IMG/VR virus record: IMGVR_UViG_3300044641_005618
Length of the DNA stretch: 64,000 nucleotides
Direction: 5' to 3' (one strand)
Origin: a virus
Lineage: Duplodnaviria > Caudoviricetes
Shown in pieces: positions 969 to 61,834 of this stretch. Position numbers and translations under genes: made by a program. The notes under the pieces are model-generated. The model ran no database searches. It worked only from the letters and a program-made list of their open reading frames with translations, and was not told the origin of the DNA. Numbering within the stretch: the first letter of the stretch is position 1; each line of letters begins with the position of its first letter.

Positions 969-1178
969 TTATAGAGAACGAAGCATGCGAATTGCATCAC
1001 CTTGGGAGAAGTACTCTTGTGAGTACAAACAGTCCACAGACGACGGGATGAATCTTCCGTTCTTGTCAAACGGGATCGGCCACCAGTACATGCCTACTTT
1101 TGTTCTGCATGGGTATATGTCTGCGGATTGAACTCGTGGCTTTTTGATCTTGATGGGTGTTTTCATAGTTAGTCTCAA
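969..1178 (-). CDS. Small hypothetical protein
   Basis: ATGA overlap with the polymerase stop; same strand as neighbours. Confidence 0.6.
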   Translation of the reverse strand: MRLTMKTPIKIKKPRVQSADIYPCRTKVGMYWWPIPFDKNGRFIPSSVDCLYSQEYFSQGDAIRMLRSL

Positions 1179-22875: not shown

Positions 22876-23379
22876 TTAATATACGAAACTTTTCTGAAAC
22901 CTGTCACTTTCAGTTCGTATTGCAAGCTCAAGTCCGTTCAAGGTTGAAACCTGGGGAACACCATAACGCTCACAAACAATGTCAACGTTGCCCTTACGGT
23001 GGAATCCTTCGGGGCAGCATACAACAGTCTTCCTGACAGTGTGGAAACTGAGTCCGGTGTCGAAGCCAAGTTCGAACAAAGAAACGGGGGCCATGGTGCC
23101 CGGTGCTAGATATACTACAACCATACTGGCCCTCTCTAGGCCGTCAAGCTCCCACTCAACCTGCTCTCGAAACACCGGGTTATCGGCGCTTTGAACCCAA
23201 GTTGGGTCCCAATCGTCGCGTCGCGGATTGTAAATATCAATGTCGTGGTCAGCAAGACTACGTTCGAGGTCAGCTTGCCAGTCGGGTGCAGAGCCCATTT
23301 CTATCGAACCTGCAAGAAACACACTGAGCCTCGACGAGAAAGGGGGTAGCTGTGCCGGTGGTTTGTAAATAGTTGCCAT
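22876..23379 (-). CDS. Nucleoside 2-deoxyribosyltransferase-like protein
   Basis: VFLAGSIEMG..DWQ, YNPRRDDWD, EQVEWELDGL, PVSLFELG. Confidence 0.85.
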   Translation of the reverse strand: MATIYKPPAQLPPFSSRLSVFLAGSIEMGSAPDWQADLERSLADHDIDIYNPRRDDWDPTWVQSADNPVFREQVEWELDGLERASMVVVYLAPGTMAPVSLFELGFDTGLSFHTVRKTVVCCPEGFHRKGNVDIVCERYGVPQVSTLNGLELAIRTESDRFQKSFVY

Positions 23380-23696: not shown

Positions 23697-23706
23697 TGTT
23701 GTTGTT

Positions 23707-24339
23707 TTAGGTTACTAAAGAGTTAGGTACAAGCTGCTGCGTCCTCCAGTGCTTGTCAGTTTGAACGTGACCTTTACGGACAAACTTAGCAACAGAAGTG
23801 CTAAAGTTATCGTAGTGAAAGGAATCAGCAAGGCGAACTACATAGCCTTCTGTCGTGTTGGTGTCCAGGCCCTTTGCCAGATTAAGGGCCACGGTCTCGT
23901 CCCAGAGTCCAGAGTAAAGAACGGAAACAGGGGTGACCCCTAACATTTCAAAGTAGTCTTCAGTGTCCTCCCATGACAATGCCCGGTTGTGCTCGTCAAA
24001 AATGCTAAACCCGTAAAAGTATGAGTGCAAGTTGGAGTAAGAAACAGAATGTTTCGCCCAGAGGTTTTCACCACAGATTCGCCACCCTTCAGGGATTTCA
24101 CTACGGATCGAAGCCCAGAATTGCTTCACCCATGCGCGGTCTTCACCACCTTTGCTGTCCAGGCTCCTGGCGTGAACATAGTCTCGGTACATCGTTGTAT
24201 TCTCACCGTCCATCTTTTCCGTCACAACCACGCGGTTGCCCTCAAAATGAACGACGGACGGAACAACCTTGTCGTCAGACGTTACAGCTTCTGACCAAGG
24301 TAGATGAAAAGTCCTGGGGTACTTGGTGCGGGATTCCAT
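23707..24339 (-). CDS. ATP-dependent RNA ligase (Rnl2-like nucleotidyltransferase domain)
   Basis: KYPRTFHLPWS, motif I TEKMDGEN, CGEN, EGYVVR, AKFVR. Confidence 0.85.
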   Translation of the reverse strand: MESRTKYPRTFHLPWSEAVTSDDKVVPSVVHFEGNRVVVTEKMDGENTTMYRDYVHARSLDSKGGEDRAWVKQFWASIRSEIPEGWRICGENLWAKHSVSYSNLHSYFYGFSIFDEHNRALSWEDTEDYFEMLGVTPVSVLYSGLWDETVALNLAKGLDTNTTEGYVVRLADSFHYDNFSTSVAKFVRKGHVQTDKHWRTQQLVPNSLVT

Positions 24340-24363
24340 GTCAGTTTCTCTGGTCTTGTACTA

Positions 24364-24407
24364 AGTATACCGTTTCCGCCGAGCAGAAGAAAGCGGGGGA
24401 AACCGCC
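24364..24407 (-). promoter_or_regulatory. Repeated promoter element (single box)
   Basis: GGCGGTTTCCC..TTTCTT-N17-TATACT. Confidence 0.7.
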
Positions 24408-24506
24408 TTAGCAAAGATCCGCTTAGGTTGAACCCTCGGAAACCATTGGTGAATGTGGGGAATAAACGAACGTTCGTACGATTATCTATCGCCCTTGGAC
24501 TGAACT

Positions 24507-24794
24507 TTAAAAACCCATCGGTGAGCGACCCTTGTAGCAGTCGGGTGTCTCTCCACCCTTGTAGTCGTTTATTGGGGTGAGTGGAAGCTTTGTGAAACTG
24601 AAGAACCACTTTGAGTTGGGGTTAGGGGTAAGAGTTAATTTCTTTAATGGGGGTTGGACGCTATTTAGCCACCCTTCCTCGAGGAAAGGGGGCAGTTCTC
24701 GCATGCTGGCAGCAGCGGCGTTAGCAATGTCTTGAGTGCTCGGGTCTCCCTCTAGCTTAAGGGACAAAGTGATCGTGACTTGATGAGTTTCCAT
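24507..24794 (-). CDS. Small hypothetical protein
   Basis: Directly downstream of a promoter element. Confidence 0.55.
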   Translation of the reverse strand: METHQVTITLSLKLEGDPSTQDIANAAAASMRELPPFLEEGWLNSVQPPLKKLTLTPNPNSKWFFSFTKLPLTPINDYKGGETPDCYKGRSPMGF

Positions 24795-24818
24795 TGGGAA
24801 TTTGCTTTCAACATACTT

Positions 24819-24901: not shown

Positions 24902-25420
24902 TTAGAGAGAATCCCCGGAAAGTGGAGGCAGCGGTAAGGGTACAGCACCGGGAATGGCCTTGGGCACCCCGATCTTGCGCTCTTTCGGCGGTCCCACTTG
25001 CGCGTCTGCGGACAGGCCCCCGTAAGCCGGTGCTTCCAAACCTGTTGGACTGAAAGTTGGTCCAGGTGAGGGAGTGTTGGAAAGCTCTGTGAACTCAGGG
25101 GGAAGGCTCGGGGGAGCTGAGCCAGGGGGCGAGAGACTAACCACAAGGTGGTTGAGACAGTCTGTGTAGGGGGGCATTGCACCCGTTTCTACTATCTTCT
25201 GGGAGAGGCTCGTTCGCTGAGTGTGAACCCACTCAGATAAAATCTGCGAAATTTTGTCGGCCCAGAATTCTGCGTTCTCTTCGTCGTTGCCTTCCTGGAG
25301 AAATGCACCTTGAATTTGGCTCCAAAGGGAATTTGACTTTCGTTGGGCCCGTTCGAGCTCAGCGGTTAGGAACGAAATTTGTTCCTTAAGCTTTTCAATT
25401 AGGTCTTGGGAGTTTGACAT
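24902..25420 (-). CDS. Hypothetical protein, coiled-coil N-terminus and Pro-rich C-terminus
   Basis: 172-aa ORF overlapping the kinase stop. Confidence 0.6.
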   Translation of the reverse strand: MSNSQDLIEKLKEQISFLTAELERAQRKSNSLWSQIQGAFLQEGNDEENAEFWADKISQILSEWVHTQRTSLSQKIVETGAMPPYTDCLNHLVVSLSPPGSAPPSLPPEFTELSNTPSPGPTFSPTGLEAPAYGGLSADAQVGPPKERKIGVPKAIPGAVPLPLPPLSGDSL

Positions 25421-25917
25421 TGCTTAGTTTCGTCGTTGCGGAATATGGTGTGCGGATACTTTTGAGCCAGGTTGGTCATTCTTGTTTGCATACCCTTCAT
25501 CCAAGTTTCGTTCTGGGTATTGTTCCGGGCTGCTCGTCTCTTCTCAAGCTCTTCGTCGCTAACCTGGACAAGAACAAGCGTCATGTTCCCTGTGGCGAAC
25601 ATTGCATCTAAGGTGGGGTTATTAGAGAAGCGTTCACCTTCAGAAAGAATATCCCATTCCTTGTATTTTTCTTCATTGTCCAGCAACCATTGGCGGAACT
25701 TTGGACCAACCCCTTTTGAAAGTTTGTCCGATCCTGCAAAAGTGCTATCGTCGTATACACCCAGCACGATAGTTTTTTGCTTCTCAAATTTGTGATATCT
25801 AACGAGTCCTTCTTGCACGTTCTCCCCCCGCTCATTGGCTTCAAGGGCGTTAAGTTTGTTACGCATTAGCGTGGTTTTACCACAGCCAGGGACTCCGAAG
25901 TAATGTGTCAGTTTCAT
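25399..25917 (-). CDS. P-loop nucleotide kinase, candidate 5-hmdU DNA kinase
   Basis: Walker A GVPGCGKTT; FAGSDKLS; EGERFSN; adjacent to the transferase-like gene. Confidence 0.7.
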   Translation of the reverse strand: MKLTHYFGVPGCGKTTLMRNKLNALEANERGENVQEGLVRYHKFEKQKTIVLGVYDDSTFAGSDKLSKGVGPKFRQWLLDNEEKYKEWDILSEGERFSNNPTLDAMFATGNMTLVLVQVSDEELEKRRAARNNTQNETWMKGMQTRMTNLAQKYPHTIFRNDETKQCQTPKT

Positions 25918-25939
25918 GCTGTTTTGCAGGTGTATCTTC

Positions 25940-25968
25940 ATTATAGTGTGAGGTGGCGGTCCAGTAAA
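25940..25968 (-). promoter_or_regulatory. Sigma70-like promoter without tandem box
   Basis: TTTACT-N17-TATAAT upstream of the kinase. Confidence 0.55.
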
Positions 25969-25984
25969 CAGTGTGCCCTGACTC

Positions 25985-27049
25985 TTAGAGTTTGATTAGA
26001 TTATCATTCTGCCAAGTGTAGTGAAAACTTCCATTTTCAACGAAACGTTTCATCTTTTCCTTGTCAATCGAATCAGCGGAGCTTAAACGATTGTTGGAAC
26101 ACTCCGCTCTACACTGATGCAAAACTTGCCATTCTATACCATACCAACCATCACCTTCCGCTTTGTGAATTTGCTCAGCAACACGGTCATTGTAGTAGTT
26201 TATGTAACGACCATTGGAAGTCCGAAAAACTTTTTTGTACGAACACAATACTGTCTCAAGGGAAAAGTTGTCGAAGTCTTTAGTAAACTCTGGCCATCGG
26301 GATTGGGCTTCCGAACTAAGATCAGAGCCGAATCCCCCCAACCACTCGTATTCTTGTGCTGTTAACCGCTGGTTAACCCAATCGTCCTTACCCGCCGCCA
26401 GACATAAGCCGTTGCGGTGACTTTTGGAGCCGGAGTAATCATCCAGGAACAGGGATGGACACTCTATAGGTAAGTCACAAGTTGCTTTGAGAGTCTGAAG
26501 ATAGAAGAAGGTGGTGTAACGGCCAAACTTGAAAAAGTTTTTAATGACGATATTCCAGAGCGTCCAAAAATTATCTTCAAGGGAACCCTGGCACAATCGG
26601 GTAAACTTGTCTTGTTGGGAAGAACTACCAATAAATTGGTGGTAACTTGCATACATGGTAGCAAGGTGCCCCCTCGACCATTTGCAATCTCGTTCGTGGC
26701 GTATACGACTGTAATTCTCAGCTACAAATGAGTCAAATCGTTCTACACTCGCAAGCTCTTCGTCTGGAAACTCTTGCTTAAATGCCCAAGATGTGGGTAA
26801 GTAATATGTATGAAAGAGCCAAGCGAACCACAGCTTTTCTTCAATACTATGCTCAAACCTTTCGTTTAAGTATCGCATCATCCACATGGATGGGTCAATG
26901 TCCAGAGCTGCAGCTGAAGACACCCACCATTGCAAAAAACCCTCTCTTCTATTCTCCAATAATCTGTAGTCAACATGACTAATATTTTGTTTATATGCAC
27001 AGGCAACATCAACAGGTCCGCTGCTGCGCACGTTATTCTTGACAGTCAT
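25985..27049 (-). CDS. Amino acid:DNA transferase-like protein (aGPT-Pplase2, HhH-glycosylase fold)
   Basis: DYR..RREGF, KLWFAWLF, FGRYTTFFYLQTL, SHRNGL, ETVLCSYKK. Confidence 0.75.
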   Translation of the reverse strand: MTVKNNVRSSGPVDVACAYKQNISHVDYRLLENRREGFLQWWVSSAAALDIDPSMWMMRYLNERFEHSIEEKLWFAWLFHTYYLPTSWAFKQEFPDEELASVERFDSFVAENYSRIRHERDCKWSRGHLATMYASYHQFIGSSSQQDKFTRLCQGSLEDNFWTLWNIVIKNFFKFGRYTTFFYLQTLKATCDLPIECPSLFLDDYSGSKSHRNGLCLAAGKDDWVNQRLTAQEYEWLGGFGSDLSSEAQSRWPEFTKDFDNFSLETVLCSYKKVFRTSNGRYINYYNDRVAEQIHKAEGDGWYGIEWQVLHQCRAECSNNRLSSADSIDKEKMKRFVENGSFHYTWQNDNLIKL

Positions 27050-27388
27050 AATACGGGTTGTTACGAGGTGAACTCATGTGGTACTTCTAAAACGGCGGCT
27101 AAATTTCCTCGAATGGCCCCTAAAATGAGAAGAATAATGTCAGAAATGGGTTATAGCGGAGAGGAACATTTAGCTAAACCTTATGATCAAACCCTCCTGG
27201 ACTGGTCGGATCTCATAGTTTGTATGAGTAAAGTACACATTACTCGCATTAATGAGAACTTCAGTGTTGACACCGACAAGATAGCTAACTGGGAAGTTAT
27301 AGACCCATTTTTTCACAAGGGCGAGGAGGTACATCGAAGTGTGGCCCACCAGATTAAAGAGCTAGTTTTCCGCCACTTTCTAGACTGA
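26975..27388 (+). CDS. Low-molecular-weight protein tyrosine phosphatase/ArsC family
   Basis: P-loop CTGNINRS, SDLIVCM, WEVIDPF. Confidence 0.85.
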   Translation: MTNILFICTGNINRSAAAHVILDSHNTGCYEVNSCGTSKTAAKFPRMAPKMRRIMSEMGYSGEEHLAKPYDQTLLDWSDLIVCMSKVHITRINENFSVDTDKIANWEVIDPFFHKGEEVHRSVAHQIKELVFRHFLD

Positions 27389-28304
27389 CAAAGTTTGACA
27401 TCTCAGCAGCAGGTTGTTTATAAATGTCAAAGTGCTCTGACATTCTGTTCAGACGCTGACCCACCACGGTTCTAGTGTTTTTCTCCAGATCTGTCCATCT
27501 AAAGATAGTATCGATATTATGGTCGTAGGGTGCGAACTGTGGAAACTTCCAGTTTCTCGAGGAGTAGATCTGGTCGGGGGTTTCACCTGTAAACAACGCT
27601 GCTTCCACAAACCTATGAATCCAACTAAAACAGCATTCGATCTCACTGCTATCTAGCGAAGGCGTGAAATGTCTAAACTCAATGGTGTTTGTTTCCCTAA
27701 GCTGAGACAAATTGATACCACCCCGGATAGCTAGTGCCCAAAGAGGCTTACCGGTCTTATCTTTGGGTGCATGACCATTTATGAACTCTTCCGGAGTTTC
27801 AGCCCCCATGCAAGCAGCTATTTGTTTCGGTTTTAGCTTATTTTGGTGGCTTACCAATCGTCTTTTGTATCTTTGTATGGCCCCCTTATACGAGGCTTCG
27901 GTTTGAAACTGGTGTCGTTCGGGGATGTCTAACGGTTCAACCAGCTCGTATACACGGTTCTGGTGACCCAGAACATACTGCATCAGACGCTTCAGAGCAG
28001 TCAGATCTTCACGCAATCCTGGCACCTGTATATGCAGATGTAGGTTGGTCCGGTGGTTGATATGTATGCGCTCTAGAGACTTAACCAAACTGTTCCATAT
28101 ATCTAGCTGCCCCTCTATACTATCCGTAGGGTCTGTGTTTATTTCCCCCCCGAGGGTATACAACTTTGCCTTTTCATCATTAGCCACACCAGTAGAGTTG
28201 GCTATACTATGATCTTTAAAGTTCCAGTTAGCGCCTCTAGGTAGTGTAACCAATCTGTCAACATCACCCAGTTCATACTCTGCACCATAAGTAGCTTCAA
28301 TCAT
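27354..28304 (-). CDS. Putative amidoligase (COOH-NH2 ligase, Amidoligase_2-like), copy 1
   Basis: GAEYE, GGEINT, NLHLHI, INL, TIEFRHF. Confidence 0.8.
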   Translation of the reverse strand: MIEATYGAEYELGDVDRLVTLPRGANWNFKDHSIANSTGVANDEKAKLYTLGGEINTDPTDSIEGQLDIWNSLVKSLERIHINHRTNLHLHIQVPGLREDLTALKRLMQYVLGHQNRVYELVEPLDIPERHQFQTEASYKGAIQRYKRRLVSHQNKLKPKQIAACMGAETPEEFINGHAPKDKTGKPLWALAIRGGINLSQLRETNTIEFRHFTPSLDSSEIECCFSWIHRFVEAALFTGETPDQIYSSRNWKFPQFAPYDHNIDTIFRWTDLEKNTRTVVGQRLNRMSEHFDIYKQPAAEMSNFVSLESGGKLAL

Positions 28305-29173
28305 ATAACCTCGTGGTATTGTCGTTGTTTCTTTCCTCTTTTCTTATCCCACTTAGTGGCAGCCCAACCTTTCCAGGTATCGGCATCAAACTCGAAAGGT
28401 GGGAATTGAAAATCGTTGCTGTTCAAAATTTCTTTCACCGTTGGTCCATCATTCAGTGCAGCGGATATAAACAGAGTAGCAAATCTAAAGCAGCTTTCTA
28501 ACTGTTTACGGTCTAAACTGTTTCTAAAACACCGGAACTCAATAGTCTTTGTATGCTTCAGGCAGTAAGTGTTAATGGCGTATCTGAATGGTCGACCTTG
28601 TGAGACGCCATCTTTGCCGCTACCGTGCAACTTTATAAAGTGATCAAAGTTAGTAGAGAGATTGACTATATTGTCACACATCCACGAAGGCATTAAACGA
28701 CCTCCGTCGTACTTCATGTAAGACTTTACATTTTTCAGACCTTTCATGTTATCCGTTTCTGTGAACGGGTAAACAGCATCCACAACATCTTTTTGATTAT
28801 CTTTAACGTAAGCAACAAGTTTTTTCAGTGATACTAAATCCCCTGTTAAACCAGGTACATGAACGTGAACATGAGCATGGGTCCGACAACAAATTGTAGG
28901 CTCATGGTTGTTGTTAGCGAACAGGTCACGTATATCAAAAATCCTATCAACTTGCTCTCGCCATGTACTTGTCGGTTTGGTATTAATTTCCCCACCCACG
29001 GGAGGGTCAAGACCCAACGGGTCGGCGGCAACATACTTGTAAGGATCTCGAAGATTAACAATGTCCCGTTCAGAGTATTCCCAGCTCCCTAAATGGGAGG
29101 GAATGTCGAAAGATCTGGGGACATCGCCCCATTCTATTTCAAAGCCATAAGTCCAGGTTGCTGGATCAAACAC
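28301..29173 (-). CDS. Putative amidoligase, copy 2
   Basis: GFEIE, GGEINT, HAHVHV, YAIN, TIEFRCF. Confidence 0.8.
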   Translation of the reverse strand: MFDPATWTYGFEIEWGDVPRSFDIPSHLGSWEYSERDIVNLRDPYKYVAADPLGLDPPVGGEINTKPTSTWREQVDRIFDIRDLFANNNHEPTICCRTHAHVHVHVPGLTGDLVSLKKLVAYVKDNQKDVVDAVYPFTETDNMKGLKNVKSYMKYDGGRLMPSWMCDNIVNLSTNFDHFIKLHGSGKDGVSQGRPFRYAINTYCLKHTKTIEFRCFRNSLDRKQLESCFRFATLFISAALNDGPTVKEILNSNDFQFPPFEFDADTWKGWAATKWDKKRGKKQRQYHEVI

Positions 29174-29828
29174 TGATTAAGTCCTCAACTTCAACTAGTT
29201 TAGTTGCAGCCTTACCCTGGTAAAGGAAACCCGGAAGGCAGCGGATAGGGTTCTTCAAACCCGCTCTCAAAGCAATATCTTTCGTTGAGGTTAAAAAGAA
29301 ACCGTTTTTAACTTCGCTTTTCCACAGGGGTCTCTTCCCATTGCGGTAATAACGCATGGAGCCAGTCTCTCTTAGCTCCAAAACAGCCATGGAAGCGTCT
29401 GTAAACTTTTTCAACGGTTGTTCCTTGTTTTCGATAGCACGAAGCACAAGCTCTGAATCGTTGGTGGTTTTTAACTGGTACCCAAACTTTATCCAAGTTT
29501 CAGGGGGCGACTGCTCAATGACACCATTGTGGGCTATGGCTAGAGAGCCGTTCGTTAGCGGTTGATTGTATCTAATATCAGAGGTAGAATAGCGGCAATG
29601 TCCAATCAACGTTAAACAATCGTCTGAGACGCAATCATTCAGATCATAAAGATTGAGAAACTCCTGTGCACAAACTGGCTCAGTGATCGTCTCAAGACCG
29701 TTTTTTCCAATATAAGAAATGCCAGTAGCATGTTTGCCCCTGACCTGCGATTCAAGGGCAATGCGTTGAATTGTTTGAATGTTGTTTTGTGTAACTTCTT
29801 CTAAGTCACATCCAAATAAGGCGCACAT
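29166..29828 (-). CDS. Class II (Ntn) glutamine amidotransferase, stand-alone
   Basis: N-terminal Cys2, RGKHATG, GHCRYST, NQP, HNGVI, DSE, RPLW. Confidence 0.9.
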   Translation of the reverse strand: MCALFGCDLEEVTQNNIQTIQRIALESQVRGKHATGISYIGKNGLETITEPVCAQEFLNLYDLNDCVSDDCLTLIGHCRYSTSDIRYNQPLTNGSLAIAHNGVIEQSPPETWIKFGYQLKTTNDSELVLRAIENKEQPLKKFTDASMAVLELRETGSMRYYRNGKRPLWKSEVKNGFFLTSTKDIALRAGLKNPIRCLPGFLYQGKAATKLVEVEDLISV

Positions 29829-30592
29829 TACACTAAGTTACAGAAAAGAATTTGTCTCCAGCGAGACACCAGCATGTCAGCGTACTGCTGTCGAGTTGGA
29901 GGGTTTGATTGCGGGTCACTATTTTCGTAAAATCCCAGTGACCACGCATCGTTAAGTTCAACTAGGCAGTACCGATTCAGGTCAGGCCTCCAGCCGATGT
30001 CAATCGTGTAAGCACCGGGCGCAATATTTGCCTCTAGCACACCCATAATCTCTTCAACCAGGCCAAAGTCAGGTTCAGGGTTTCTTACGGGCTTGTCGTC
30101 ATACCGCGACCACCCCTGAATTTTACCACCCCCAATGAAGTCGTGAATGTAGAACCGAAATTCCGACTCAAAGGGCACAGCCTGAGAGACCCACACTGAA
30201 GTGTTATCAGAAATTAGTCCAGGTATCTTCAGTTCGAGCTCTCTCTTGATGTCCCCGGTAAACAACTTTATTGCGGTTGGCTTCACAAAGTCTTCCAAGG
30301 TTGCTTCACCGTACACTCCTTGTCGAACGGACCTCATAAGGTACTTTTTCAGTTCTCCATTACACCCGTAGGAAAAGTCCTCAGGTAGCACAATACCTGC
30401 GTGTTCACTATAAGCTTGAACAAATTCCACCGATCCCACAGGAATCAATGTAGCCAGGAAACCTTTAGGGTCTAACTTCGATAGGCCGTTAAACGAGCAA
30501 TATTGGACAGGGTAACAGGAGAAGCTACACGCAACCTTCTCGATTTGTAGTGGTCCTCCGGACTGGAGTAGGAAAGTAGGATTTTTCATCAC
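29828..30592 (-). CDS. ATP-grasp protein (R2K/DUF4343-like)
   Basis: FVKP...KLFTG, EFRFYI, YTIDIG, LVELNDAWSLGFY. Confidence 0.8.
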   Translation of the reverse strand: MMKNPTFLLQSGGPLQIEKVACSFSCYPVQYCSFNGLSKLDPKGFLATLIPVGSVEFVQAYSEHAGIVLPEDFSYGCNGELKKYLMRSVRQGVYGEATLEDFVKPTAIKLFTGDIKRELELKIPGLISDNTSVWVSQAVPFESEFRFYIHDFIGGGKIQGWSRYDDKPVRNPEPDFGLVEEIMGVLEANIAPGAYTIDIGWRPDLNRYCLVELNDAWSLGFYENSDPQSNPPTRQQYADMLVSRWRQILFCNLV

Positions 30593-30773
30593 GGTGGGCA
30601 GTTAGTTAGGTAACAACGACAGTATATTGGCATTAACCCACTGGGTCTCTTCTCTCGACAACTTAAGCCACAGAAGGTCAAGCTCGTCGAGCAAGGCCTC
30701 CTCCGCGTCCTCGTTTCCCTCTCCCCTTAACTTTAGGGACAAGCTAAGTTTTTCGCAGTAATCTTTAACTTCG

Positions 30774-31364
30774 TCAGTCATTAAGATTGGATCGAAGCAT
30801 ATTGCAGAAAATACGACCTTGCTCGATGGCATCATCCACAGCGATGTGAGTGTGCTTGTTTTCGAGTGGAAACCACTCCTTTGGGTAGTTCCGTTTGGTG
30901 GACTCCCGGTATCCTCTTTTGAGCAAGGCCATAGCATAGGTCTTACCGTCAAGCGCCGAGAAGCTAAATGGGGACTGTCCAGTGAACCGAATAAGGTACC
31001 AATACACGAAAAGAAAGTCAAACCCTGCAGGAAAACCCACGAATACGGGCAAGGCTTTCCGACCACCTGAACCTTGGTTACTGTTAGCTTTCACGGTCTG
31101 GTCAACCCAACCCGAGAAGAGCAACATGGCTTGGTCCGGACTCCAGGTATGCTCCCGAGAGGCTCTGTAAGCCTCTGGGTGGGCCTCCCACCACGCTTGA
31201 GTGGTAGGGTCCGCCTGAGCCTCCGGAAGGGTCTCCAGGTTCACCGAGAAGGTGCTTAGGAGTATCCCATCGGGTGAGAACGCAGCCGACCCGAGCGAAA
31301 GCATGCTGTTAGGTCCGGGGATCGGTCCGTCGGTCTCAACGTCTGTGCTGAAGTAGATTTCCAT
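30774..31364 (-). CDS. DEDDh 3'-5' exonuclease (Rv2179c-like), leaderless start
   Basis: [22 protein letters not shown]. Confidence 0.85.
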
Positions 31365-31370
31365 AAAACA

Positions 31371-31432
31371 ATCATAGCATTTATGCGAAGCAGAAACAAG
31401 GGGGAAGCCGAAGGCTTCAGGGCGGTTTACCG
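31371..31432 (-). promoter_or_regulatory. Repeated promoter element, leaderless
   Basis: CGGTAAACC-N13-CGGCTTCCC..TTGTTT-N17-TATGAT-N6-ATG. Confidence 0.8.
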
Positions 31433-32914
31433 ATCTTGTGTAAACACTTGTACGAGTTTCCACCCTTCGCCTGGATCATCCTTGAACAACTTCACCTCTT
31501 TCGTAACGTCGTTCTCGTACGGCGAGGAAAGCTGCCAATTAGAGTTTGAACAGTGTTCCAAGTTTCTTTCTTTTCTAAAGTCTAGCCATTCTTGAGAAGT
31601 CCACATACCTTGCCAAACACCTCTCCAATCTTTATGATCTTTGCCCCGTTCTTTCAGAGACTGAAGTGAAAACTTCATGAACTGTTTTCGGCATTCTTCG
31701 CACTCAAGATCGTCCAATCGGGTCATGTTCTCTCGTGAGTAGAAAACCAGAGAAACCCGCTCAGCATCTTCAGTAAGTTTTGTCATGGGGCTGTTACCAT
31801 GGAGCAAAGTTTGAGTATCCCCTACGATGAAGTCCCCGTCTCTTAAATTGAAGGCCAATCTCACTTCGGGAAACACTAAGTAGTGACCTTCATAAACACC
31901 TTTTGTAAAAGCAGTTAAGACGGCCATACTCCCTTTCAAATTGTTCTTGTCAACGTGGTAGGCAGTCTTGAAATTGAAATTTACGGTTACACTCGTAAAG
32001 GCAGTGCCGAACAAGTTGTAGTTAGGGTCTTTAGCCCTCGAAATCACTTCCTTGACTTTGACCCAAGTCTCCGGAAAATTGTACCTGAAACCTTCGCAGG
32101 CTGTGAAATAAATGTCTTTGTATTTTGAGAACTGCTCATAGTATCTCTGAGTGGTTCCGCTTAAACGACCGTAGGGGAATCTAGCCCCACGGTCAATTGC
32201 CCCAAGGACGTTACTGTAGCAGTGGTTAAAGTTCAACTGGGAACTTATGTAAGTGTTTAGAACTTTTTTAACTTCTTCGACTTTGTTTTCTGAGGGCAGC
32301 CAAACTTCTAGTAACCAAGATTCGAACCAACCCCAAAGCTGTTCTCTTCTCTGGTTTCTCAGACTTTCTAGTTTCGGGTCTTCGGAGTTCAGTGTGCGAA
32401 TTTCCGCCTCTAACGGTTTCATTTTCTCCGCAAGTTCGGGGTAGTCTTTCTTCACGTATTTGATTTTCAGAGTCTTGCTGGTGAGCTCATCCGAACTTTC
32501 TAGGGCTTCTCGCGCTTGAGCGAGCGTTGTGATCAAGCCCACGGAAGCACCAGCGAAAAAGGCAACCTGTCCTTTAGTTAAGCGTGATTCGGGGCGAGTT
32601 GTAAACTCTGTGCCCGCAACGACACCTCTTTGGGTGCCGTAAACTTCTTTTGAAGCTGCTCGGAAAAAGTCCCAAGTCTCCTTCTGTTTGGAAGAACCCT
32701 CGGAAAGAAGTGGGAAAAGAGCTTTCCGGAAGGACAAGACTTTTACACCTGAGACGTAAACATCACAGTCTTCATCGATTACGCGGTCATAGTCTGTCGC
32801 CTTAGGGAATTGTCCAATATATTCACTGCGAGGGCAGTATTCAAGAGCACCCCTATCAATCTGTAAGGGTTCGACCCTTGACTGTAACTCTTTTGATATT
32901 ACCTCTCGGATCAT
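31427..32914 (-). CDS. TET/JBP-family Fe(II)/2-oxoglutarate dioxygenase, paralogue 1
   Basis: [17 protein letters not shown] (HxD), LLHGN (distal His), [12 protein letters not shown]. Confidence 0.85.
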
Positions 32915-33375
32915 TGCCTATTTCCAGGAAGAATCAAGTTAGACGCGGGCTCATCTTCGATGCGAATTGCTTCCTTGGCGGTCAGGTCATTGGTTCCTTC
33001 GATGCGAGTGAACGTTAGTCCGTACCCTTCACTCTCGGCTTGAGATGCAACGGAGTAGAGCCCGAGCGATCGTACAATAAGGTTACTCTCCGACAACTCC
33101 TCTTGTTCAGCAAGTGCTCGAAAAGCCTCAGCGAAGTTTACAGGGAGTTCCACTGTAATGGCGGTTGTTGCTTCACGGGGGTCACTAATCCCTGAGGCAA
33201 CTTGCCGCTCCTCGGCAATGTCTCTTGGGGAGTAGGTTATTCCCGCAGAGTTTGTTCGAGTGCGACCGAACATTTGTTCGTCTGTAAGGGGGGTTGTTGA
33301 TTCACGGGGGTCATTAATCCCCGAGGCAACTTGCCGCTCCGCGTAGCCACCGTTAAGCTGTTTGTTTGTGTCCAT
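32911..33375 (-). CDS. Chimeric protein: internal repeats, DUF6915-derived peptide, C-terminal ribbon-helix-helix
   Basis: RQVASGI(N/S)DPRE twice; EQMFGRTRTNSAGITYSPRDIAE; AITVELP...LSESNLIVRSL. Confidence 0.65.
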   Translation of the reverse strand: MDTNKQLNGGYAERQVASGINDPRESTTPLTDEQMFGRTRTNSAGITYSPRDIAEERQVASGISDPREATTAITVELPVNFAEAFRALAEQEELSESNLIVRSLGLYSVASQAESEGYGLTFTRIEGTNDLTAKEAIRIEDEPASNLILPGNRQ

Positions 33376-33430
33376 AGTTAGTAATCCTGTGTTTTCGTTC
33401 GTTAAATGCCACTTTGGTAGTCTTTAGGAC

Positions 33431-34918
33431 TCAATTCTCGGTGCCCCGATAGTTAGTATTTGAGCAACGTTCTAAGCCGTGTTCGGCTTTATACGTCATC
33501 CATTCCGGTGATTTCCACATTCCGCTCCAAACACCATTCCAGGTCTTGTGACCATTTCCGTATTCCTTGTGGTTGTCTGCCGCGTATCGCATGAAATCTC
33601 GGCGGCAGTCCTCGCACTCCATATCGTCAAGAGCGGTCATGCGCTCTCGTGAATAGAAAACGAACGAAACTCGTTCAGCGTCCGGCGTCTTCGGAATCAT
33701 TGCAGTGTTACCGTGAATCAGTCCCTGATTGTCACCGGCAATAAAGTCCCCATCACGAAGGTCGAAAGCGCAACGAATTTCAGGGAACACAAGGTAATGG
33801 CCGTCATATTCCCCTTGAGTAATTGCAGTAAGAACGGCAATACCACCTTCGCAGTTATTTCCATCATAGTGCATCGCACAGCGGAAGTTCCAGTTTAACG
33901 TAAGGGCAGTGAACACCGTACCGAAGAGGTTATAGTGCGGGTCTTTCACGTTACTGAACCGTTCGTGAAGGAGGTCCCACCGAGGGTTTTCCGGAGTGTT
34001 CAAGGTCTCTTTGAGCGCAGAGCACGCGGTCTGATAAATATCCGTGTGGCTTACGAACCCCTCATAGTCTTTTACAGTTGTTGCGGTCAAACGACCGTAA
34101 GGGTTACGTGCACCCCTATCAAAAGCACCAATCACGTTGGAATAGCACTTGTTTGAACGGTATTGTTTTCCCACATACCTGTCGTCGGCACGTTTCGCCT
34201 CAGAAACCTTATCCGTAGATGCACTCCAAGTCTCAGACAGCCAAGTCGGGAACCACTTCGCAAGTTCTCTACCCTTCGCTTCCTTCAGCTCTACCTTTCT
34301 TTCTTCGCTCAGCGTTTTCTTGCGAAGTTCCTTCTCGATAGATTCTAAAGCTTTCTCAATTTCTGGGAAGTCCTTTTTAACATCATTCACTCGGACAGTG
34401 AGCTTTGACATGTCGGGGGAGAGAGAAGCAATTTTCAGTGCCTCTTCCACGTCAGTGACTTGACCGGCCATCGCCTTCTTGAAGAAGTTTAGAATACCGT
34501 TGGTTACCCTTATCTCGAGTTGGGTAGTTAGTTCTCTACCAGCAACTAGGCCTCGTTGGTCTGAGTACAAGTCTCTTGCTGCCCAGCGGAAGTATTTCCA
34601 AGTTTCCGGGCTACCTTTCGAACCATCGCGCAGCTTCGGAAAAAGTGCCTTACGAAAGGCAACAACTTTCACTCCGCCCACATAAACGTCGCAGTCTTCT
34701 TGAATAAGGTTGTCGTAAGAGGTTTCGTCGGCGAAATAGCCAATGTAGTCTTTCGGGTCACACTCGTATAGCTTGTCGAGGTCGATTCGGCGGGGCTCTT
34801 GGCGAGAGCGTAAATCACAGACAACGGCTTCACTTACAGAACAGTTATCGTTGCATTTTTCATTTCCGGTTGAAGCGGCTTTAGAACTCTTCGTTAAGTT
34901 TTCTGTCACAAATGTCAT
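33431..34918 (-). CDS. TET/JBP-family dioxygenase, paralogue 2
   Basis: FTALTLNWNFRCAMHYD, LIHGN, RVSFVFYSRERM; colinear with paralogue 1. Confidence 0.85.
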   Translation of the reverse strand: MTFVTENLTKSSKAASTGNEKCNDNCSVSEAVVCDLRSRQEPRRIDLDKLYECDPKDYIGYFADETSYDNLIQEDCDVYVGGVKVVAFRKALFPKLRDGSKGSPETWKYFRWAARDLYSDQRGLVAGRELTTQLEIRVTNGILNFFKKAMAGQVTDVEEALKIASLSPDMSKLTVRVNDVKKDFPEIEKALESIEKELRKKTLSEERKVELKEAKGRELAKWFPTWLSETWSASTDKVSEAKRADDRYVGKQYRSNKCYSNVIGAFDRGARNPYGRLTATTVKDYEGFVSHTDIYQTACSALKETLNTPENPRWDLLHERFSNVKDPHYNLFGTVFTALTLNWNFRCAMHYDGNNCEGGIAVLTAITQGEYDGHYLVFPEIRCAFDLRDGDFIAGDNQGLIHGNTAMIPKTPDAERVSFVFYSRERMTALDDMECEDCRRDFMRYAADNHKEYGNGHKTWNGVWSGMWKSPEWMTYKAEHGLERCSNTNYRGTEN

Positions 34919-35399: not shown

Positions 35400-35420
35400 A
35401 AAAAGAGACCCGAAGGTCTC
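35400..35420 (-). terminator. Rho-independent terminator
   Basis: GAGACC-TTCG-GGTCTC followed by TTTTT. Confidence 0.85.
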
Positions 35421-36024
35421 ACTGAAAGTACTCGAATTTTTGTGAGAATGCGGCCCTCATCACAGACTGCATGTTGCGAGCGATATCGAGGTCTTTGCTG
35501 CAATGAACTTTGTCTCCCAGAAGCTCTGGTAAAACAAACGGATAACTCTGTGTAATCTCCTCTTCGTAGAAGTGAATGCGGTGCTTAACTCTAGTTCTTT
35601 CACAAAGTTCGTTGATTCTCTTTGCCTCCTTCACGAAGTTTTCACCGTGGCCTTTAATCCCGTCGTCTCGGCGCTCAAGATCAAGATACTTGTGAAGCAT
35701 CTCGTGCAGAAGGACGCTTCGTGTTTTTACAGGGTCACCTGCAATTACGCGAGAGAGGCGAATGGTTCCGAACCCACGTCGTGCAGACGTTTTGTATGAG
35801 CCCAGGTTTCTGCGACCCATGCGACCATCCCACTTTAGGGTGTAGTATCGCGACCAAGTTTCTCCGTTTTCGTCAGTCCGAGTCTTACAGGGAAGAACTG
35901 GTAAGTCCCCGTTGAAGTAGCGGGCGTTAAATTCTGCGTAAATCTCTCCAAGATCGTACATCACCGTGGGGTCTGGGCAGAACCGGCGAAAGAACGACTC
36001 AGAAAGGGTCGATTTTAGTTCCAT
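35419..36024 (-). CDS. SprT-like zinc metalloprotease, leaderless start
   Basis: FNARYFNGDL, LLHEMLH, GHGENF. Confidence 0.85.
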   Translation of the reverse strand: MELKSTLSESFFRRFCPDPTVMYDLGEIYAEFNARYFNGDLPVLPCKTRTDENGETWSRYYTLKWDGRMGRRNLGSYKTSARRGFGTIRLSRVIAGDPVKTRSVLLHEMLHKYLDLERRDDGIKGHGENFVKEAKRINELCERTRVKHRIHFYEEEITQSYPFVLPELLGDKVHCSKDLDIARNMQSVMRAAFSQKFEYFQ

Positions 36025-37234: not shown

Positions 37235-37597
37235 TTAGTCTCCGATTGGAATGAATTTGGTTTGTTTGTTGGGTGACTTGTTAGTGCCAGACATCCACGG
37301 TTGTGCAACCATGTTGTTTAAGTACTTTTCGACAGTGGGAATGAACCCGAGGTCTTGAATAATGTGATCTTCGGCGATGTCTCGGGGAGAGTAAGTTATT
37401 CCAGCAGAGTTTGTGCGTGTGCGACCGAACATCTGCTCAACGACAAAACACCCGAACGACGAGTGCAGCAATGCCCGGTGACGAATGTCGGGAAAGGCAA
37501 TCTTGCTACTGTCAATAAAGTCGTCTATATCAGCGTAGTCGTCGGGTGAGCCTCCGTACTTTCTGGCATGTATCCTCCCGTGTAGAAAAGGTTTCAT
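37235..37597 (-). CDS. DUF6915-like protein
   Basis: KP..H..HARKYGG..DDY..IDDFIDSSK..DIRHRALLHSSFG. Confidence 0.7.
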   Translation of the reverse strand: MKPFLHGRIHARKYGGSPDDYADIDDFIDSSKIAFPDIRHRALLHSSFGCFVVEQMFGRTRTNSAGITYSPRDIAEDHIIQDLGFIPTVEKYLNNMVAQPWMSGTNKSPNKQTKFIPIGD

Positions 37598-37613
37598 ATC
37601 AAATGTGGAAGTT

Positions 37614-38417
37614 TTAACAAAGTTTTTCGTCAGTCTTGCAAGATCGTGGCTGACTCCATGAGGTCTCCCGCTCAAGCCGAACTTTGTAGGTTTCTTTAGA
37701 AGTGTCGTACCAAAACTCGGGATCTTTTACTCGGCACGGTGGCACATTCGTGAAGTTCTCCTCACGTGGTAAAAGCTTGGACACTTGTCGTATGCATTCC
37801 TGAGTAATCTCGTCAACCGTTTGACACCCGTCGATTGTAACCACGGGGTAACATTTCAGTCCCAGTTGTTCGTTGGGCTTATGAAATCCTGTAAGTATGC
37901 GGTCGAAAAAAGGTCGTTCTGACCGCTCAAATCTGTCTCGGACAGACAGCCCTTCGCCTTCTCGCCTTGAGAGCCGTCTCATTGACTCATCGACGGGAAC
38001 GTCAAAAAACAGTTCTAAGTCGGGGTACAATACTCCGCAGGCAAGTTCGTGGGCTTTCTCTACCGCTTCAGGTCCCAAACCTCTTCCCCACCCTTGATAG
38101 GCTAGGGTACTCGCGTAAAATCGGTCGCATAACACCCAGTTGCCCTTTTCTAGCTCCGGCATTATTACTGTTGCAACGTGCTGAGCCCGGTCGGCCATGA
38201 GCAGTAAAAGTTCGGCTTTCGGTGTGATCGCAGCCTTAGGGTTCTTAAGCAAGTCTCGCACACCGGGTAAACATCCTGGTTCTCGAGTTTTAACAACCTT
38301 GGTCCCTTCGGGTAGTCTCCCACTACGTGATAGCCAGTCAAACACAGCGTGGAGCTGGGTTGTTTTTCCGCAGCCGTCAAGACCTTCAAAGGTTATTAAC
38401 TGTCCTGTGTAACTCAT
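37614..38417 (-). CDS. tmk: Thymidylate kinase
   Basis: ITFEGLDGCGKTTQ, TREPG, ADRAQH, LCDRFYASTLAYQG, PDL. Confidence 0.92.
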   Translation of the reverse strand: MSYTGQLITFEGLDGCGKTTQLHAVFDWLSRSGRLPEGTKVVKTREPGCLPGVRDLLKNPKAAITPKAELLLLMADRAQHVATVIMPELEKGNWVLCDRFYASTLAYQGWGRGLGPEAVEKAHELACGVLYPDLELFFDVPVDESMRRLSRREGEGLSVRDRFERSERPFFDRILTGFHKPNEQLGLKCYPVVTIDGCQTVDEITQECIRQVSKLLPREENFTNVPPCRVKDPEFWYDTSKETYKVRLERETSWSQPRSCKTDEKLC

Positions 38418-38585
38418 AGCGAAATAGTTCGAATATAGTTTTGGTAACGGGTGAAGCGACCAACAGACGCTTTCACGTTTAAGCTCCGACAAGCTTCACA
38501 GTAGGAGAGAAACTCGTACCACGGGGTCGTGGGGTCTAAAGTCTCGAGCTTGGCCTCTGCCCCTGTGACAGAAGCGTCAGGGGCT

Positions 38586-46378: not shown

Positions 46379-46463
46379 CGGAAGAGGGGGGATTTGAACC
46401 CCCGGAGGTTTAACCCTCTACAGTGTTCGAAGCTGCTGCTTTCGGCCGCTCAGCCACTCTTCC
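46379..46463 (-). tRNA. trnS: tRNA-Ser(CGA)
   Basis: GGAAGAG/CTCTTCC acceptor, loop TTCGAAC, long variable arm, GGTTCAAATCC T-arm, G73. Confidence 0.9.
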
Positions 46464-46553
46464 TTGGTACCGCGATGGGCCACTCCTGTGTCATTCACCG
46501 GATATGGCCTGTGGGTGTGTTCTTTAACGAGTTTTCTAGGACTTGAAACTAAG

Positions 46554-46642
46554 TAGGCGTGTAGGGAGTCGAACCCTAACTAGCCGGTAATCTGCCGGAG
46601 AGGACTTTATAATGGTCCCTGTGCACCGTACACCACGCGCCC
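46554..46642 (-). tRNA. Atypical tRNA, Ile(TAT) or Tyr(ATA), with long variable arm
   Basis: GGGCGCG/CACGCCT acceptor, GGGAC-CATTATAAA-GTCCT anticodon arm with 9-nt loop, TAGGG-TTCGACT-CCCTA T-arm. Confidence 0.7.
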
Positions 46643-46683
46643 ATGAAAGGGAACCACCATACGAGATGGCCCCAAGGTGAGGC

Positions 46684-46848
46684 TCAGGCAGAGGGAGTTT
46701 GAACTCCGACCGCCAAGTCAAATTCGTCAAGGGCACTTTGAACTTCAGTGCCGGTGCTTGCCTCGCTGAGTCTTAGGAGGAGCTTTGCGCCGTCGGGGTT
46801 TTCGACGCCAATTCGTGCGGCACGATCAACTATAGAAAGATTTGCCAT
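46684..46848 (-). CDS. Small protein inside the tRNA cluster ending EVQSALDEFDLAVG
   Basis: 54 aa from ATG at 46848. Confidence 0.6.
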   Translation of the reverse strand: MANLSIVDRAARIGVENPDGAKLLLRLSEASTGTEVQSALDEFDLAVGVQTPSA

Positions 46849-46895
46849 TTTGTATTGTTGCTGTTGTTGTTTAGTGTGGCTGCAAAGGCAGCCGA

Positions 46896-46967
46896 CGCCC
46901 TGAGAGGGATTCGAACCCACGACCGGTGTCTTAGAAGGACAGTGCTCTTCCACTGAGCTACCAGGGC
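46896..46967 (-). tRNA. trnR: tRNA-Arg(TCT)
   Basis: GCCCTGG/TCAGGGC acceptor, loop CTTCTAA, GGTTCGAATCC. Confidence 0.92.
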
Positions 46968-60700: not shown

Positions 60701-61834
60701 ATGAGAAATTGCTACACATACAGAGTGGGTTGGTCCCGGTTCAATAAGTACTACTACGGAGTTAGATTCGCCAAAGGATGTCACCCTGCTGACCTTTGGG
60801 TTGCCTATTTCACTAGCTCCCGGCATGTAAAAGCATTTAGAAAAGTTCACGGGGAGCCAGATATCATAGAAGTGAGAAAAACTTTTGGAGACGAACCTAA
60901 AAAGGCAGCCGAATGGGAACAAACTGTTTTACGAAGACTAAACATAGAGTTCAACGAACTATACTTAAACAGAAGCCGAAAGAACGCTTTCGGGGCCAAG
61001 GGGGCGCCATGGAATGTGGGTAGAACCAAGGAGAATTGCCCCGTGACACATTTAACTGCGGAGAAGATTAGCAAGACTAGAAAAGGTTTTAAAGCCTCAG
61101 AAGAAACTAAGAAGAAACTGTCTATGGCTGCAAAGGGAAGGGCCGAAGAAAATTCCTGGAAGCAGCTATTAAAAAGTCCAGCAATTAGAAACAGATTTCA
61201 CTCCTATAAACATTTCTTAGTTGAGATAGAAAACCTATACGAGTCTTGTTGGGGTATCGCGGAGGTCATTTCAAAAGCCCTGGGAGTGAACGTCAGAGGC
61301 GTTGCTAAAGCCCTAGAGCGCCTAAATCTGACTTCTTTGAACGACCAGCAGAGAACTAAAGTGTATAATAAGTACGGGAACAAGTTCTCTAGTTACAGCG
61401 ACTACTGCATAAGTATCTTAGTTTTACATCTCAAGGGCTACACTCCCAGTCAAATTGGTAGTCAGTTGGATGTAAATGAATGCGGAGTGGGGAACCTTCT
61501 TCTTAGGGTTGATTTAACCCCTAACAAGGCCAAAACGGGACCGTCAAAGCCCGCTTTTAAGAAGGTACTGATTGCTGATGCTCTTGAAGCTAAAAGCACC
61601 ACATTCACTCTTGAAGACAATCCCCTCCCGGAGAGTCTTATTGCTAAGTTGAGAGAAACCGTCTGCCATACCGAGGATCTCTTCCACACCCATATCCTTT
61701 ATAGAGAAGCTTCCCAACACAGGGACGTGGCCCAAACCAAATTGATCGCAAAAGTTTTTCCTTTCCAGGGGGGTCATGTACCTCCCCATATCCGTAAGGT
61801 AGACATCAAAAACAAAGAACTTGAAGTCATTTAG
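60701..61834 (+). mobile_element. Free-standing GIY-YIG (Seg-like) homing endonuclease with NUMOD3-like motifs
   Basis: YTYRV...YYYGVR, YFTSS, WEQTVL, YLN; PWNVG and KISKTRKG..SEETKKKLS; opposite strand to neighbours. Confidence 0.8.

Follow-up and report, generated by a model that had tools for sequence, protein, structure and literature searches.

Hypermodifications of phage DNA defeat restriction and CRISPR defences and supply DNA-labelling enzymes. In the published chemistry of the enzyme families concerned, thymine is converted to 5-hydroxymethyluracil (5hmU), the product is phosphorylated, and an amino acid:DNA transferase (AADT) carries out a substitution through a thiol adduct at C6 and the exocyclic methylene (PMC8989533, PMC13229309). 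A conserved cysteine and a neighbouring glutamate are essential in the transferases M6 gp51 and ViI gp247 (PMC8989533). In metavirome contigs described by Lee et al. (2021), a TET_JBP dioxygenase replaces the hydroxymethylase beside the kinase 5-HMUDK and the transferase aGPT-Pplase2, and amidoligase and glutaminotransferase domains of unknown role also occur (PMC8989533). O'Toole et al. (2026) demonstrated phage thymine (T-)dioxygenases experimentally and found their ParB-dependent subclass to be consistently linked with glutamine amidotransferases (GATases), with kinases of the P-loop type and with AADTs (PMC13229309). So far, the TET-fed route consists of gene neighbourhoods and the dioxygenase step. 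The GATase, amidoligases and phosphatase have no assigned role, and no reconstitution of any post-dioxygenase step in TET-fed clusters was found in the literature. The locus analysed here, at positions 25399-34918 of a 64,000-nucleotide stretch of viral DNA (IMG/VR record IMGVR_UViG_3300044641_005618, below called the window), combines two TET/JBP dioxygenases with a kinase, an AADT, a GATase, two amidoligases and a low-molecular-weight (LMW) phosphatase. A preliminary description had presented it as a candidate new pathway. Its novelty is not supported, as the association of TET, kinase, AADT and amidoligase/GATase is published (PMC8989533, PMC13229309), and the locus is a variant of that concept.

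With a probability of about 75%, the locus serves to hypermodify thymidine after replication, in a large freshwater phage that is a relative of S-CBWM1. The cluster most likely oxidises thymine in the phage's own DNA and then adds an amide- or peptide-like side chain. What was observed are gene identities, catalytic motifs, folds, co-conservation, the exchange of a cassette and the lack of any further source of 5-hydroxymethylpyrimidine; each catalytic step, its substrate, the order of steps and the product are inferred from them. The kinase, the AADT-like gene, both amidoligases, the class II GATase, the LMW phosphatase and both TET/JBP genes are intact open reading frames (ORFs) at the positions originally reported. 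The inventory had missed an R2K ligase and a DEDD exonuclease-like ORF, as well as the fact that the phosphatase gene lies on the opposite strand, overlapping the start of the AADT gene and the end of the gene for amidoligase AmL1. The other cluster genes belong to a minus-strand run, and coordinates below refer to that strand unless stated otherwise. The order from upstream is SprT-like protease, 113-aa ORF, TET2, 154-aa ORF, TET1, DEDD exonuclease-like ORF, R2K ligase, GATase, amidoligases AmL2 and AmL1, LMW phosphatase (the sole plus-strand member), AADT and P-loop kinase. The R2K/GATase, GATase/AmL2 and AmL2/AmL1 pairs overlap by 1, 8 and 4 nt. Pfam searches covered 40 window ORFs, including every ORF of at least 200 aa on the main coding strand.

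The identity of the gene at 25985-27049, on which the preliminary description had staked its proposal beforehand, is confirmed: it encodes an AADT (clade 2 aGPT-Pplase) that matches Pfam ADDT PF18724 at 66.7 bits against a cut-off of 26.2. Its nearest cultured match is Cba120 orf248, of the ViI gp247 type, at 26.5% identity. The motif E265-T266-x-x-C269 is invariant in the window protein, Cba120 orf248, Kozie gp2 and the phage Simon protein; it fits the essential Cys/Glu pair of M6 gp51 and ViI gp247, with which it is provisionally equated. In a phylogenetic tree, all 25 GATase-linked AADTs, with that of the window among them, fall into one clade of 26 rows (support 92/96), separate from the ViI, Kozie and Simon types. 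The one row of the clade that is not GATase-linked (L024) sits on a long branch. The GATase-linked clade may use ammonia rather than an amino acid as the nucleophile.

The adjoining P-loop kinase (25399-25941) belongs to Ploopntkinase3 (Pfam PF18751, 45.6 bits against a cut-off of 27) and carries the Walker A motif GVPGCGKT. The other Pfam matches are generic AAA families. There is no match to the HMUDK families PF18748 and PF18723, nor a BLAST match to the HMUDK of phage Simon. Judged by family assignment, the kinase is outside the characterised 5-hmdU DNA kinase families; it may nevertheless work like 5-HMUDK and is predicted to phosphorylate 5hmU in DNA. Its nearest cultured homologues adjoin TET and ADDT genes in Microbacterium phage Kozie. 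In this cultured phage, the unannotated genes 1-4 (L016 1-3273) encode TET, AADT, an FAD oxidoreductase and Ploopntkinase3, an arrangement reminiscent of the PaMx11-type pathway but fed by TET. A different arrangement is present in Methylophilales phage Melnitz-2 (L017 4010-8090), where a C5-methylase, a TET, a 427-aa protein of unknown function and a related P-loop kinase follow in a row; this array may represent the kinase-dependent pathway's equivalent for cytosine.

The two dioxygenases, TET1 (31427-32914, an extra paralogue) and TET2 (33431-34918, the widespread orthologue), match Pfam Tet_JBP PF12851 at 66.5 and 50.7 bits, respectively, against a cut-off of 34.9. Each has 495 aa, and the two, encoded in tandem, are 50% identical. 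As the preliminary description had stated, the HxD..H..R residues that bind iron and 2-oxoglutarate are intact in both; H320, D322, H372 and R394 are invariant among 50 homologues. The AlphaFold2 (AF2) model of TET1 (pLDDT 95.5) shows the TET-type double-stranded beta-helix fold, and the top PDB matches of the TET model are CMD1, CcTet, TET2 and NgTET1, with E values of ~1e-8. An atlas search with the N-terminal 230 residues returned low-score Tet_JBP clusters only and gave no hint of a fused ParB or other separate domain. The window TET2 is 60% identical to the S-CBWM1 TET, which is annotated as an 'SNF2 DNA repair protein', and minimal clusters carry one TET, the TET2 orthologue. Some lake variants skip the TET1 region (31364-32954) or strongly diverge across it (joints in runs X3 and X6), so the second dioxygenase copy evidently varies within the lake population.

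Immediately upstream of TET in every close relative, including S-CBWM1, and whatever the decoration cassette, lies the gene of a SprT-like zinc metalloprotease (35419-36024; Pfam SprT-like, 39 bits), in which HEMLH is followed by GHGENF and HExxH is intact. The S-CBWM1 annotation of the orthologue (L006 2725-3339) is 'putative transcription elongation protein'. It is speculation that the protease removes DNA-protein crosslinks arising from over-oxidised or activated bases. ParB_N was not found in the related records G001-G005 nor in the scanned window ORFs; a distant relative (L050) does carry it. With no co-located ParB-like activator seen, the window TETs are set apart from the ParB-dependent T-dioxygenase subclass as far as gene content can tell.

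The tailoring genes lie between the dioxygenases and the AADT. AmL1 (27354-28304) is a carboxylate-amine ligase of the glutamine synthetase/gamma-glutamylcysteine ligase (GS/GCL) fold. It reaches 19.5 bits for Pfam Amidoligase_2 PF12224, below the cut-off of 22, while its homologue P0091 does carry PF12224. Of the profile searches that the preliminary description had proposed, ADDT, Tet_JBP, GATase_6 and Ploopntkinase3 scored above their cut-offs; HMUDK and Amidoligase_2 did not. A PDB sequence search with the amidoligase profile likewise gave no useful match. The AF2 model of AmL1 has a pLDDT of 95.5, and all 50 PDB matches listed for it are GshF, GCL, glutamine synthetase or YbdK, with modest Foldseek scores (E 2e-4 to 3e-2, TM 0.19-0.39). 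Residues E9, E11, E54, H89, H91, R194, E209 and R211 are invariant. AmL2 (28301-29173) has no Pfam match and is a paralogue of AmL1 (31% identity). The ligase of distant TET-GATase-AmL-GNAT clusters shares 58-61% identity with AmL2, and that of TET-GATase-AmL-LMWPc clusters 40-43% with AmL1. The window thus unites two tailoring sub-modules. In Vibrio phage 2.275.O (L019 8881-13141), 7-deazaguanine genes and the gene of an Ntn hydrolase are the neighbours of an amidoligase homologue (26% identity), so another kind of base modification in DNA may likewise make use of an amidoligase/Ntn pair.

The GATase (29166-29828) is a stand-alone class II (Ntn) domain of 220 aa that matches GATase_6 at 34.9 bits against a cut-off of 27. 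Its N-terminus reads MCALFG, and the Met-Cys start is present in all orthologues. The best NCBIfam similarity is to PurF and then to AsnB, both far below the cut-offs. A complex prediction for AmL1 and the GATase scored 0.00, which weighs neither for nor against binding. The LMW phosphatase (26975-27388, plus strand; LMW-PTP/ArsC fold) matches LMWPc PF01451 at 58.4 bits against a cut-off of 23.2. It has a CTGNINRS loop (CX5RS is kept in all orthologues) and a DP general acid in VIDPFF. Possible substrates are a phosphorylated acyl donor or residual phosphorylated 5hmU, and its occurrence is strictly bound to that of the AmL1-type ligase. Its gene is antisense in all members of this clade (44-69% identity) and co-directional in distant clusters, which makes an old, fixed inversion plausible. 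An active invertible switch was considered and rejected, since the antisense orientation is fixed throughout the clade.

The substrate of the dioxygenases was approached through the other genes of thymidylate and cytosine metabolism. Neither a ThyA-family gene (PF00303) nor a C5-methylase (PF00145) was found in the relatives G001 (98% complete), G003 (71%) and G005 (53%), and both are absent from six related records, one of them 98% complete. ThyX is present in all three of these relatives, of which G003 carries the same cassette as the window. The check for thymidylate synthase, hydroxymethylase and C5-methylase that the preliminary description had recommended for the rest of the genome was thus run on relatives (53-98% complete) and returned ThyX only. 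Within the window, its statements also held: no methylase or hydroxymethylase occurs among the 40 ORFs scanned, and a thymidylate kinase, Tmk, is encoded at 37614-38492 (Pfam Thymidylate_kin, 108.9 bits), in keeping with a phage that supplies dTTP. Because the relatives have ThyX, the window has Tmk and no methylase or hydroxymethylase was found, thymine appears to be made and incorporated normally, and the TETs are the sole visible source of 5-hydroxymethylpyrimidine. The absence of C5-methylase and ThyA-family genes from the relatives points to thymine, not 5-methylcytosine (5mC), as the base oxidised. The cluster of phage Simon consists of AADT, DAO, amidoligase, LMWPc, HMUDK, Nmad5 and a ThyA-like hydroxymethylase. 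The presence of the amidoligase and LMWPc inside this hydroxymethylase-fed cluster ties both to 5hmU chemistry, whatever the source of 5hmU.

At least six diverged lineages of viruses have kept the genes of the cluster together, and the gene order is repeated at 35-75% amino-acid identity in L008-L015 and L020-L024. This clustering is far beyond chance. The clusters form a graded series. The simplest is SprT-TET-AADT-kinase (L024), and the next grade is SprT-TET-GATase-AmL1-LMWPc-AADT-kinase (L011, L012, L015). The clusters of L013 and L020-L023 have, in addition, TET1 and R2K and, in some cases, a GT4 glycosyltransferase. The window type, with AmL2 added, is found in L008 and L010. The AADT (47-48% identity) and GATase (43-47%) of distant clusters resemble their window counterparts more closely than TET (27-31%) does. 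A census was made of the 80 best IMG/VR relatives of TET, with 10 kb of flank on each side and profiles built from the cluster genes; its loci are related to each other and not phylogenetically independent. AADT and/or kinase occur in 38/80 loci and the TET-associated glycosyltransferase (TAGT) in 15/80, and the two are never found together (0/80). The GATase is present in 34/80 loci, 27 of these 34 with AADT/kinase (Fisher p 1e-6) and none with TAGT. The amidoligase (18/80) is always accompanied by the GATase, and LMWPc (7/80) always by the amidoligase, while 16 of the 34 GATase loci show no amidoligase. The presence of genes is nested, in the order TET > AADT+kinase > GATase > amidoligase > phosphatase. 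Many full-length clusters are of the form TET-GATase-GNAT-AADT-kinase, with no ATP-dependent ligase and a GNAT in the amidoligase slot.

The record closest to the window, G001, is a viral contig of 277 kb with an estimated completeness of 98%. It is 87-97% identical to the window in nucleotide sequence on both sides of 25450-29827 and 93-96% identical directly adjoining it. The enclosed segment holds the kinase, AADT, LMWPc, AmL1, AmL2 and GATase and has a GC content of 44.0% compared with 49% in the flanks. In its place, G001 carries a TAGT, a 118-aa ORF, a nucleotidyltransferase (NTP_transf_3) and an APH-like kinase, and no AADT occurs anywhere in this record. The TAGT of G001 is 62% identical to S-CBWM1 gp9, whose gene adjoins the S-CBWM1 TET. 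The co-conservation expected by the preliminary description thus holds in several lineages but fails in the closest relative, which has no kinase/AADT/amidoligase/GATase block. Given the intact flanks, this is taken as a clean cassette replacement and not as evidence against function. In three lake sequencing runs, the cassette shows 0-1 differences over up to 3.8 kb on flanks that are 4-6% different, and the exact G001-type junction is also present in one of these three runs. The cassette therefore moves between backbones, and the alleles coexist. The segment from kinase to GATase is assigned to one horizontally mobile cassette, with SprT, the TETs and R2K as the resident anchor. If this is true, a single lake phage population would carry a DNA-modification polymorphism behind one TET anchor, like a serotype switch. 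Synteny with G001 ends at 37029, and the fetched G001 flank is unlike the window at 37-64 kb, so the two genomes differ beyond the cassette.

The proposed pathway would begin with normal incorporation of thymine, by way of ThyX (seen in relatives) and Tmk. The two TET/JBP paralogues would then oxidise T in DNA to 5hmU, the two copies possibly widening the range of sequence contexts, and the Ploopntkinase3 kinase would phosphorylate the hydroxymethyl group. In the next step, the Cys/Glu pair of the AADT would attack C6 and expel the phosphate, and a nucleophile would add to the exocyclic methylene. This sequence, in which 5hmU made by TET goes to a kinase and from there to a transferase, was already put forward in the preliminary description and gains support from co-conservation, the ThyX-only relatives, the Glu/Cys pair and the Simon cluster. 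As for the tailoring, there is an even chance that the stand-alone PurF-like glutaminase provides ammonia as the AADT nucleophile, giving 5-aminomethyl-dU, and that this amine is afterwards N-acylated by the two ligases AmL2 and AmL1, with carboxylates that are probably amino acids, to aminoacyl- or dipeptidyl-aminomethyl-uracil. The LMW phosphatase would act together with AmL1. In PurF, ammonia displaces pyrophosphate from carbon. The ammonia model is favoured because all 25 GATase-linked AADTs form one clade apart from ViI, Kozie and Simon, because ammonia in PurF, the closest relative of the GATase, displaces a phosphate-type leaving group from carbon, and because the GNAT in the amidoligase slot recalls the N-acetylation of aminomethyl-dU in PaMx11 (PMC8989533).

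The order of the tailoring steps could also be the one originally suggested, in which the AADT transfers a free amino acid of the Gly/Ser type to phosphorylated 5hmU, an amidoligase activates its carboxylate, and ammonia from the GATase amidates it or further residues are added. This order is credible but rather unlikely. The characterised AADTs M6 gp51 and ViI gp247 transfer glycine or serine (PMC8989533), and the nearest cultured match of the window AADT is of the ViI type; the GATase and amidoligases are translationally coupled through their overlaps (8, 4 and 1 nt), and the census amidoligase never occurs without the GATase. However, the 16 GATase loci that show no amidoligase and the full-length GNAT-containing clusters, which have no ATP-dependent ligase to use the ammonia, are hard to reconcile with amidation of a ligase-activated carboxylate, and the GATase-linked AADTs form a clade apart from the amino-acid-transferring types. 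Because many AADT and kinase clusters with a GATase have no such ligase, the GATase more likely serves the transferase. Consequently, the involvement of GATase and ligases in tailoring is upheld, while carboxylate amidation as its order is not.

The remaining alternatives concern the target. With slim chances, the GATase, both amidoligases, the phosphatase and R2K could make a peptide-like metabolite or modify a protein, leaving only TET, kinase and AADT to act on DNA; such a role has been suggested for the amidoligase-GATase-ATP-grasp modules of the PaP3/LUZ24 type. R2K ligases are predicted protein modifiers (PMC4431377, PMC7824862), R2K is kept in the glycosyl-type phage G001, and phage PaP3, which has neither TET nor AADT, encodes a COOH-NH2 ligase and an amidoligase together with a GATase, a RimK-like ligase and a gamma-glutamyl cyclotransferase. 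What speaks for DNA is that the GATase, amidoligase and LMWPc genes lie between TET and AADT in many lineages, that they are swapped with AADT and kinase as one block, that they never occur with the glycosyltransferase, and that the amidoligase and LMWPc are found inside the 5-hmdU kinase cluster of phage Simon. It is highly improbable that the pathway runs on cytosine, with 5mC from the host or an undetected phage methylase being oxidised to 5-hydroxymethylcytosine, phosphorylated and substituted. Phage TETs of clades A and B do act on 5mC (PMC8256090), and the Melnitz array of C5-methylase, TET, unknown protein and kinase includes a kinase 28% identical to that of the window. Nevertheless, neither PF00145 nor the ThyA family was found in the six related records, the amidoligase and LMWPc also accompany a dUMP hydroxymethylase in Simon, and a C5-methylase accompanies only ~6% of phage 5mYOX pathways (PMC13229309).

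Several points weigh against the interpretation as a thymidine hypermodification cluster. No characterised Ploopntkinase3 member was found in the literature, and the absence of methylase and hydroxymethylase was judged from relatives and the 40 window ORFs scanned. PaP3-like phages combine a GATase, two amidoligases and an ATP-grasp ligase without TET or AADT. The R2K-clade ATP-grasp ligase (29828-30592; Pfam R2K_3 73.8 and R2K_2 69.9 bits against cut-offs of ~26), in which ELND fits the ExN motif, is kept with the TETs in amino-type and glycosyl-type phages and is absent from minimal clusters. Because it stays with the TETs in a glycosyl-type phage, its membership is uncertain, and it may lie outside the pathway. 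Metatranscriptome contigs, for which DNA carry-over is possible, span TET, SprT, R2K and Tmk of relatives diverged by 3-6%, and none span the cassette. Since the census profiles were derived from closely related sequences and may overlook distant members, and since a large share of the contigs is truncated, absences of amidoligase and LMWPc may be misses. Finally, common descent rather than functional coupling could lie behind the nesting and the single clade of AADTs.

The DNA polymerase of the gamma type (1175-4105) is 57% identical to the enzyme of Synechococcus phage S-CBWM1, and the window sequence was seen in lake and freshwater metagenomes from 19 studies, while megablast against GenBank phages gave no match for the window. 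The size of its relatives suggests a jumbo genome; a 2021 survey listed no TET/JBP in jumbo phages (PMC7824862). The DEDD 3'-5' exonuclease-like ORF (30774-31463) has a weak Rv2179c-like match (23.4 bits against a cut-off of 27), is kept in G001, L008, L010 and L021 but not in L013, and is probably accessory. An ORF at 30602-31066, which overlaps it in another frame and has no family match, was set aside as probably spurious. The 154-aa ORF between the TET genes (32911-33375) has no family match and is partly kept in L008 and L010. It has a peptide of ~27 aa in common with the DUF6915 gene at 37235-37675, and this match recurs within the L013 copy of the DUF6915 gene. Downstream of the cluster, at a distance of a few genes, all close relatives keep a Nuc_deoxyri_tr2 gene (nucleoside 2-deoxyribosyltransferase-like, 22876-23379), for which a role in modified-nucleotide handling is possible. 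An RNA ligase gene (23707-24339, region 23704-24815) is an insertion polymorphism: G001 lacks it, and two DNA runs and one run of an RNA library have 21 other letters at its site. The window also encodes a second RNA ligase (PHA02142 OB domain and RNA_ligase, 61544-62623), a topoisomerase IV/gyrase A-like protein (5675-7696) and three tRNAs (46379-46967, ARAGORN).

As far as found, three observations are new: the swap polymorphism, the nesting of gene presence and the clade of GATase-linked AADTs. A wider proposal, tentative and with somewhat less than even odds, is that amino-type and glycosyl-type cassettes are alternative alleles, and that the amino type makes an undescribed base through PurF-like ammonia transfer by a specialised AADT clade, extended by two GS/GCL-type ligases, one of them paired with a phosphatase, to an aminoacyl or dipeptidyl side chain. 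The locus offers a small set of genes whose order of action can be tested, and a specific hypothesis, namely that glutamine-derived ammonia is the AADT nucleophile. In addition, the natural near-isogenic pair with alternative decoration cassettes suits testing what each decoration protects against.

Compared with the metavirome TET_JBP clusters and the 5-methylpyrimidine dioxygenase (5mYOX) pathways, the window is alike in that a TET replaces the dUMP hydroxymethylase beside kinase and AADT, GATase and amidoligase co-occur, and there is no neighbouring C5-methylase. However, the GATase/kinase/AADT context there is tied to ParB-dependent dioxygenases, whereas the window is ParB-less and SprT-linked and has tandem 495-aa TETs, twin amidoligases and a phosphatase. 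With the M6, ViI and PaMx11 pathways (Lee 2018, 2021), it has in common the logic of 5hmU, 5-phosphomethyl-dU (5-PmdU) and AADT with the essential Cys/Glu pair, and the end product of PaMx11, an N-acylated aminomethyl-dU, is of the type proposed here. Unlike the route proposed for the window, theirs starts from a ThyA-type hydroxymethylase that makes 5hmU before replication; their kinase is of the HMUDK family instead of Ploopntkinase3, and their tailoring relies on PLP, radical SAM, flavin and acetyltransferase enzymes instead of a GATase and amidoligases. The TET and TAGT systems (Burke 2021; base J; S-CBWM1, G001) have the same SprT-TET anchor. Their decoration is a sugar, attached by way of a glycosyltransferase, a nucleotidyltransferase and a sugar kinase, and 0/80 census loci combine them with AADT/kinase. 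For two of the steps, analogies are offered by PurF, in which ammonia released by a class II glutaminase takes the place of a phosphate-type leaving group on carbon, and by PuuA or gamma-glutamylcysteine ligase, in which a GS/GCL-fold ligase acylates an amine with a carboxylate via an acyl phosphate; the likeness is at the level of domain and fold only, with NCBIfam scores far below the cut-offs and Foldseek TM-scores of 0.26-0.39, and in the window a base of duplex DNA would serve as the acceptor. The PaP3/LUZ24-like module also has two COOH-NH2 ligases, a class II GATase and an ATP-grasp ligase, but it is without TET, AADT and kinase, and its GATase is much longer and 25% identical to that of the window.

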